A stretch of 64,000 nucleotides of DNA from Escherichia phage vB_Ec-M-J: sequence record OQ718158.1; one strand, written 5' to 3'. A program made the position numbers and the translations under genes. This document shows, piece by piece, positions 24,408 through 24,843 of this stretch. Under the pieces are notes generated by a model that was not told the DNA's origin, did not search any database, and saw only the letters and a list, made by a program, of their open reading frames with translations. Within the stretch, counting starts at the first letter, position 1, and each line of letters starts with the position of its first letter.

Positions 24408-24824
24408 ATGAATTATGTTTGGGTAGATGTAGTAAAATCTCTCGTATCAACACATGATGTTGATTTACCAGATAGTCTGGTATTTAACAGATGGTACTAT
24501 CCAAATCCAGAGGACTGTAACGTTGGAATTGGATTTTTTATTAATGATAAATCTAATTTGTTTGGATTAATTGAAGATGAGACAAAATCCAACCTTATAT
24601 TCTCGATTGAGTTGAATGCTGATCACATAAAATACTACACCAATAAAATGGACGAAGACGATGGAGATGTTATAATCCCAGCAGAAATAGACGAAGCTTC
24701 ATTTTTTCAGTTATCATTGATTTATGATCTATCTAACATTAATTATGATAATGTGAAAGACCTTTTTATATTGTACAATAAAATGTATAATTACTTTTTA
24801 AGACCTTTTTATATTGTACAATAA
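24408..24824 (+). CDS. hypothetical protein whose C-terminus lies in a 43-bp tandem duplication
   Basis: 138 aa; last codons and stop fall inside the second repeat copy. Confidence 0.45.
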   Translation: MNYVWVDVVKSLVSTHDVDLPDSLVFNRWYYPNPEDCNVGIGFFINDKSNLFGLIEDETKSNLIFSIELNADHIKYYTNKMDEDDGDVIIPAEIDEASFFQLSLIYDLSNINYDNVKDLFILYNKMYNYFLRPFYIVQ

Positions 24825-24843
24825 AATGTATAATTACTTTTTT
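24757..24843 (+). repeat. tandem direct duplication, 43-bp unit, two copies
   Basis: agacctttttatattgtacaataaaatgtataattactttt repeated back-to-back, identical except the last base; contains a TATAAT-like element. Confidence 0.9.

Follow-up and report, generated by a model that had tools for sequence, protein, structure and literature searches.

An exact 43-bp tandem duplication at the 3′ end of a gp534-like gene in Escherichia phage vB_Ec-M-J and related Asteriusvirus jumbo phages

Short tandem duplications arising by Streisinger-type slippage or illegitimate recombination are known from the genetics of the T4 rII and lysozyme genes. In T4-type phages, the PeSL is a dispersed multi-copy motif that combines a strong sigma-70 promoter with a terminator stem-loop (PMC2839356, PMC4122927). 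The predicted promoters of the Rak2-like group include RpoD-like promoters with an UP element, a class with a TGAAACG −35 element and late motifs of the ATAAATA type (PMC5259590). The phage vB_Ec-M-J was given as a separate Asteriusvirus species, and the 43-bp repeat is not mentioned there (PMC13070987). Nothing specific on this duplication and no Asteriusvirus promoter map were found in the literature searched. The 43-bp duplication is new to that literature, and the kind of event, a short tandem duplication allele, is already known.

The whole stretch of DNA analysed here (64,000 nucleotides, hereafter the window) was found to match, in the region concerned, those jumbo phages of E. coli that form the genus Asteriusvirus (121Q/PBECO4 group); within the phage collection EC.P1 matched best, with 98.1%. 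An exact doubling of 43 bp was found at the 3′ end of the gene at 24408-24824, and this doubling is a real, heritable and ordinary structural variant. The features of the locus are as follows.

24333..24389, + strand: upstream control region with the promoter TTGACT-17-TATAAT (24333-24361) and a terminator hairpin (24362-24389)
24408..24824, + strand: open reading frame of 138 aa, homolog of 121Q gp534, PHROG 36582 (profile match)
24757..24799, + strand: copy 1 of the 43-bp unit (TRF, exact match; occurring once in 121Q, PBECO4 and others)
24766..24783 (copy 1) and 24809-24826 (copy 2), no strand assigned: 18-bp quasi-palindrome TTATATTGTACAATAAAA
24786..24791, + strand: TATAAT of copy 1, in-frame Tyr-Asn codons of the native protein
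24800..24842, + strand: copy 2 of the 43-bp unit (TRF, exact match, alignment with one-copy relatives)
24801..24821, + strand: seven added codons, RPFYIVQ (translation, comparison with relatives)
24829..24834, + strand: TATAAT of copy 2, non-coding, 26 nt upstream of the start at 24861
24838..24843, + strand: T6 run after copy 2, base 24843 being an extra T (five T in most two-copy relatives)
24861..25046, + strand: gene of 61 aa, homolog of 121Q gp535, PHROG 4189, with a hydrophobic N-terminal segment

The array was reported by TRF at 24757-24842 with a period of 43, 2.0 copies, 100% matches and a score of 172, and it was the sole strong tandem repeat of the 64-kb window, the runner-up array scoring 55. 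The 43-mer AAGACCTTTTTATATTGTACAATAAAATGTATAATTACTTTTT, searched over the whole window with up to 3 mismatches, was found to match only 24757-24799 and 24800-24842; the expected number of matches was 0, and none was obtained in 100 shuffles of the window. The two copies abut head-to-tail with nothing between them. The back-to-back duplication given in the preliminary description was thus confirmed by TRF and by the exact 43-mer search, but the difference that it placed at the last base of the unit was produced by the choice of phase, as the copies are identical in the TRF phase and base 24843 is the extra T. The T6 run is silent on the two-copy array of the window. In every two-copy sequence the junction was found to read TTTTT at the end of copy 1 followed directly by AAGACC at the start of copy 2, and the longer junction sequences TTACTTTTTAAGACCTTT and ATAATTACTTTTTAAGACCTTTTTATATTG are diagnostic of two copies. 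The one-copy layout consists of GATAATGTGAAAGACC, one unit and then TTTTTATAACAG. The microhomology at the junction amounts to 1 nt (A) in the BF17-type alleles and, owing to the extra T, to 0 nt in the window.

The protein of the gene was found to be 100% identical to EcMJ_266 of phage vB_Ec-M-J (378,573 bp). Positions 2-126 of the 126 positions of the PHROG 36582 profile matched residues 7-131 of the 138-aa protein; the profile stops at residue 131, and the 7-aa tail lies outside the family. No Pfam domain was found in the 138-aa protein, and its predicted structure had a mean pLDDT of 40.5 and was unusable. Copy 1 codes for the final 14 native codons and the first two bases of Leu131 (KDLFILYNKMYNYF plus TT). 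The Leu131 codon TTA (24798-24800) spans the junction and is finished by the first base of copy 2, followed by 24801-24821 in the shifted frame, a stop codon at 24822-24824 and non-coding sequence at 24825-24842. The duplicated segment stops one base short of the native stop codon, and the whole native protein (...YNYFL) is therefore retained, with the native stop shifted out of frame; seven residues are added because 43 = 3x14+1. The translation agrees with the earlier claim that the protein end is altered by a repeat length that is not a multiple of 3, although the end is extended rather than replaced, since all 131 native residues remain and 7 are gained. The protein ends in ...YNYFLRPFYIVQ before the stop, the C-terminal stretch that carries the predicted tail being ...MYNYFLRPFYIVQ, and the added RPFYIVQ was the same in all two-copy alleles except MUNK22 (RPFYIGQ). 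In the one-copy relatives the protein ends in ...YNYF(L/I) before the stop. The T6 run combined with one copy would give ...YNYFFITEEL, with a stop codon overlapping the ATG of the next gene, and exactly this open reading frame was found in contig L035, which contains one copy, the T6 run and the private SNP of the window. The phage WPEC3 (L011) was found to contain neither a gp534-like gene nor the repeat unit; at least one natural isolate can therefore do without the gene.

Between the stop codon and the start of the following gene lie 13 nt in the one-copy arrangement (e.g. UE-S1) and 36 nt in the two-copy arrangement, and the gene at 24861-25046 keeps its own GAGG ribosome-binding site (24850-24853) and ATG. 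A mini-ORF of 11 codons (24826-24861, MYNYFFITEEL), with a TAA overlapping the ATG of the gene at 24861, arises in copy 2 from the T6 run; no obvious ribosome-binding site precedes it, and independent translation is improbable. The genes at 25043-25450 and 25437-25859, both of PHROG 20693, are adjacent diverged paralogs (BLASTP 33% identity, E = 2e-8), and as judged from this similarity the pair, which closely follows the 43-bp repeat on its downstream side, goes back to an old tandem gene duplication. The gene at 24021-24353, upstream of the open reading frame, codes for a homolog of the HPF/RaiA-like ribosome hibernation factors (Pfam Ribosomal_S30AE, E = 3e-10); its homologs in the relatives are labelled 'sigma 54 modulation protein' or 'putative sigma factor', the latter being a misannotation. 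A cassette of two genes of 372 and 126 nt (123 aa and 41 aa), located at 2061-2557 in EC.P1 (L001), is lacking in the window between 24843 and 24861. This cassette was found in EC.P1, WPEC5, fEgEco12, Turkey3, Ecwhy_1, ph0011 and CMSTMSU, and was missing in the window, BF17, 121Q and others. Its left edge coincides with the last 2-3 nt of the 43-bp unit (TTTAT vs TTTTT). Its second gene is a paralog, with 68% identity, of the 40-aa gene at 25871-25993 of the window, and the end of the cassette (...DWLMGE, with a TGATG overlap with the next start) resembles the junction of the latter gene with the CCA-enzyme gene. No transposase or homing-nuclease domains were found in the neighbouring cassette proteins.

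One copy of the unit was found in 121Q, PBECO4, UB, G17, UE-S1, SD-15_S21, ph0011, Ecwhy_1, Turkey3, fEgEco12, CMSTMSU and TH47, in about 28 distinct Asteriusvirus genomes of the phage collection in all, as well as in the metagenome loci L019 and L020, and one copy is therefore the ancestral state. The two-copy junction was found in 13 sequences besides the window, namely four phage genomes (EC.P1, BF17, WPEC5 and A4), five phage contigs of about 352-359 kb in E. coli assemblies (GCA_973721985, GCA_011911785, GCA_025677605, GCA_036253495 and GCA_012813795), two ENA metagenome contigs and two Logan contigs. The 12 non-Logan two-copy sequences, window included, come from various laboratories, countries and assemblers, the two-copy records being from China, Poland, Thailand and Ireland, among others, which shows a wide distribution of the allele. 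The junction was not found in IMG/VR, and a copy-number-neutral pattern searched in IMG/VR and the JGI metagenomes returned one-copy loci only. Three or more copies at the site were not seen in the genomes, contigs and proteins compared, which contained only one or two. In the large protein collection, the proteins bearing the tail fell into eight clusters at 90% identity, with backbones 82-86% identical to the protein of the window. The two-copy arrangement with a conserved C-terminus, which according to the preliminary description would speak for fixation rather than instability if carried by all relatives, was found to be shared by a large subset of the relatives. Complete contigs of Asteriusvirus size (about 352-359 kb) were found in public assemblies labelled as E. 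coli (L023, L024/L032, L026/L033, L029 and L030), which suggests that E. coli cultures taken for sequencing quite often carry such jumbo phages or are contaminated by them.

Five diagnostic SNPs within 50 nt upstream of the array were common to 12 of the 14 two-copy sequences (haplotype cattGattTatgatCtatctaaCatta). A block of about 150 bp is shared exactly by A4, whose flanks share just 77-93% identity with the window. Downstream of copy 2, no fewer than seven different sequences were found, the array of MUNK22 was found on a TH47-like upstream haplotype, and the tail of P0017 and P0025 was found on other 3′ haplotypes. The 4-kb region around the array is strongly mosaic, with haplotype switches on both sides of the array. 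The private changes comprised A>G in copy 1 of EC.P1, T>G in copy 2 of MUNK22, the extra T of the window and deletions in copy 2 of 12 nt in L034 (Logan SRR30543657) and of 11 nt in L036 (Logan ERR11525536). These changes, which in EC.P1, MUNK22, L034 and L036 are confined to a single copy, indicate that the allele persisted; the duplication had been described as recent, and the private mutations of EC.P1, MUNK22, L034 and L036, the divergent protein backbones and the number of downstream sequences speak against this. In L034 and L036, independent small deletions have taken out the TGTATAATTAC stretch of one copy, P0020 (ENA) being grouped with them, and the 3′ end of the gp534-like gene seems to be unusually tolerant of small rearrangements.

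The proposed course of events starts with one illegitimate replication or recombination error, which would have doubled the final 43 bp of the gp534-like gene ahead of its stop codon. Leu131 would have been rebuilt at the junction, the ribosome would enter copy 2 one base out of phase and halt after 7 codons, and the second TATAAT and the second quasi-palindrome would have been turned into non-coding DNA. The two-copy allele would then have been kept in Asteriusvirus populations and carried into many local backgrounds by homologous recombination during co-infection. One event followed by recombination is preferred because the downstream sequences and the mosaic region make repeated identical events less economical, and the haplotypes are, we infer, explained most economically by a single origin and spread through recombination. 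The two-copy allele is probably near-neutral. Taken as a whole, a heritable, near-neutral structural variant of single origin, spread by recombination, is considered likely, and a function of the duplicated DNA is not needed to explain the data. Three points stand against this reading: the copies were 100% identical to each other in 9 of the 14 two-copy sequences, as would be expected, too, if the event were younger or if gene conversion had acted between them; the moderate frequency and the many backgrounds could reflect selection instead of drift; and the upstream haplotypes of MUNK22, P0017 and P0025 call for a recombination point no more than about 30 bp from the array, or else for the same event to have happened twice.

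The stability of the array and the trustworthiness of its assembly were weighed on the same sequences. Five pairs of matched backbones with and without the second copy were found (P0001/P0019, P0016/P0021, P0013/P0026, P0002/P0009 and P0007/P0012), and the one-copy contig L031 (Logan, SRR9693738) was 100.000% identical to the two-copy contig L032 (GCA_011911785.2) over about 18 kb bar the 43 bp, the other relatives differing by 0.5-1.5% over the same span. Such pairs would be expected of a labile locus at which the array contracts to one copy and perhaps re-expands, so that lysates are mixed and the one-copy counterparts are true revertants; contig L035 has the content that the collapse of a window-type array predicts, and the one-copy forms P0020 and P0021 come from ENA assemblies, not from Logan. 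Four of the five one-copy partners, however, were known only from Logan, where assembly is done at k=31, and exact 43-bp arrays hold 13-14 repeated 31-mers. Both two-copy Logan contigs were found to carry the copy-2 deletions, which leave 0 repeated 31-mers, and no such deletion was found in the 12 non-Logan sequences (2/2 vs 0/12, Fisher exact p ~0.011, hand calculation). The repeated 31-mers and the deletion pattern in Logan therefore favour collapse at k=31, and the one-copy counterparts of two-copy backbones most likely represent repeat collapse in assembly, as far as the sequences indicate. As a three-copy sequence was never seen and P0020 and P0021 were inspected as proteins only, a labile locus is regarded as unlikely. 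The statement that the type-I haplotype occurs with one copy only in Logan was set aside in its strict form, being softened by the ENA-derived one-copy proteins P0020 and P0021. A population switch, in which contraction and re-expansion would alternate the protein ends ...YNYFL, ...YNYFLRPFYIVQ and, on the T6 background, ...YNYFFITEEL, is held to be improbable; such a switch would change the distance from stop to start (13, 36 or −1 nt) and hence the degree to which translation of the following small membrane-protein gene is coupled to it. Assemblers are known to make errors at exact short tandem repeats, and the copy number differs between assemblies of what is evidently one phage (L031/L032), which would be in line with a second copy in the window created by assembly or sequencing, an assembly artefact having been considered in the preliminary description. 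The identical junction was found, however, in 11 other non-Logan sequences from independent projects, the identical protein is on record from phage vB_Ec-M-J, and the copies have diverged in some genomes, which is impossible for an artefact. The assembly error observed also goes the opposite way, a copy being lost at k=31, and the artefact risk at this locus is the loss of a copy. An artefactual second copy is accordingly given hardly any credence.

The TATAAT-containing stretch had been described as doubled, and a TATAAT was indeed found in each copy. A reading in which the doubling is adaptive or regulatory would have a weak promoter, an UP-like AT-rich element or a longer spacer raise or uncouple the expression of the block of genes from the gp535 homolog to the CCA gene. 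This reading draws on the perfect TATAAT 26 nt before the next start, the clear intergenic promoters of the window lying at 23-46 nt, on the density of + strand TATAAT in the window, which was 6x higher in intergenic than in coding sequence (5.6 vs 0.88 per kb), on the presence of tandem promoters elsewhere in the genome (42992 and 43084) and on the occurrence of the two-copy allele on many backgrounds. With a weight matrix built from the intergenic TATAAT sites of the window, the flank of the unit scored −1.5, closer to the intergenic mean (−2.4 +/- 5.3) than to the in-gene mean (−6.5 +/- 6.6), but the matrix fails to separate intergenic from in-gene TATAAT, the score distributions overlapping completely. 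The TATAAT of the unit was found to lack a −35 box, the best candidate matching 3 of 6 positions (TTTTTA), and to lack a TGn extension, as the TG abuts the hexamer and the 1-nt spacer is missing. The unit was not called in a scan for consensus promoters, the region giving 10 matches vs 7.1 +/- 3.1 in the background. By chance, 40 copies of TATAAT occur inside the genes of the window, and that of the unit corresponds to native Tyr-Asn codons. Natural alleles without the TATAAT were found in copy 2 of L034 and L036 and in the single copy of P0020. The strong predicted promoter at 24333-24361 lies 50 nt upstream of the open reading frame, with its −10 hexamer directly against the hairpin of 11-bp stem and with no terminator downstream; it is the likely transcription start of 24408-24824 and the following genes, and would already explain their transcription. 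In the annotations of G17 and UE-S1, a terminator is placed at the equivalent of 24333-24389, and no promoter. The 43-bp unit also matched no specific element of the promoter classes of the Rak2-like group. A putative promoter function of the unit is unsupported, and an adaptive or regulatory doubling is considered rather doubtful. Still less probable is a unit that acts as a mobile regulatory cassette of the PeSL type or as a recombination hotspot, the doubling being a by-product of shuffling. The left border of the two-gene cassette on the last 2-3 nt of the unit and the haplotype switches on both sides of the array in a highly mosaic region would fit such an origin, but the unit is confined to a single locus and has neither a stem-loop nor a strong promoter, so that three of the four defining features fail; the border coincides with a stop codon, a natural module border in any mosaic phage, and the copies abut directly.

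Further candidates were rejected. A dispersed regulatory motif was discarded, as no meaningful recurrence outside the locus was found for the unit, the quasi-palindrome or the TGTATAATTAC core; the quasi-palindrome gave 9 matches elsewhere vs 6.6 expected, which is not above chance. A structured RNA was rejected on the basis of shuffle folding and Rfam: the RNA of the unit folded at −17.4 kcal/mol (z = −0.67), 47 of 200 shuffles folded at least as well, and the Rfam search returned no family and one sub-threshold chance match. A target-site duplication of a mobile element was dismissed, as the copies abut and the cassette proteins are without transposase or nuclease domains.

Other promoter arrangements were observed in the window. 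The layout at 24333-24389 resembles the PeSL cassettes of T4-type phages, and a similar order of a terminator followed by TATAAT was found upstream of 10210, 30778 and 35623. The segment 42960-43095 contained two near-consensus sigma-70 promoters (TTGACA-N14-TGnTATAAT, −10 at 42992 and 43084), 92 bp apart and with similar flanks. A third TATAAT was present at 43215-43220, and together with the pair it lies upstream of the gene starting at 43261. The pair looks like an old, diverged tandem promoter duplication.

Under the preferred reading of a near-neutral variant spread by recombination, the biological weight of the duplication is small, as it is one more structural polymorphism in a mosaic accessory-gene region of a jumbo phage. 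The junction provides a compact lineage and recombination marker for Asteriusviruses, since the same junction was found beside many flanks. The locus is also a clean case of assembler-dependent copy number, in which the second copy of one phage is present in the NCBI assembly but missing at k=31, the predicted C-terminus differing accordingly, and it calls for caution in the mining of Logan-type assemblies for protein variants. A locus that switches in vivo or acts as a promoter would be a modest regulatory curiosity, and selection on the switch or on a doubled weak promoter would then explain the many backgrounds of the allele.

The locus shares with PeSL elements its position in a hyperplastic and mosaic stretch occupied by small non-essential genes, a −10-like hexamer and the boundary of a cassette indel; unlike them, the 43-bp unit is confined to a single locus and has no −35 box and no stem-loop, the PeSL-like element nearby being that at 24333-24389. 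With the tandem sigma-70 promoters at 42992 and 43084 it has in common two same-strand TATAAT that are separated by some tens of bp and lie upstream of a gene, whereas both members of that pair contain TTGACA-N14-TGnTATAAT and the unit contains only a −10 hexamer and was ancestrally coding. As in VNTR or minisatellite loci, strains differ in copy number (one or two) and the calls vary with the assembler; in contrast to such loci, only two states were found and the state tracks the haplotype (12 of the 14 two-copy sequences on one 3′ haplotype). The duplications of the Streisinger type are matched in the head-to-tail pair, the one-copy ancestor, the out-of-frame read-through peptide and a reversion that is possible in principle, whereas the present duplication differs from them in a microhomology of at most 1 nt, in the lack of a flanking direct repeat and in being a natural allele found in 14 sequences on many backgrounds.
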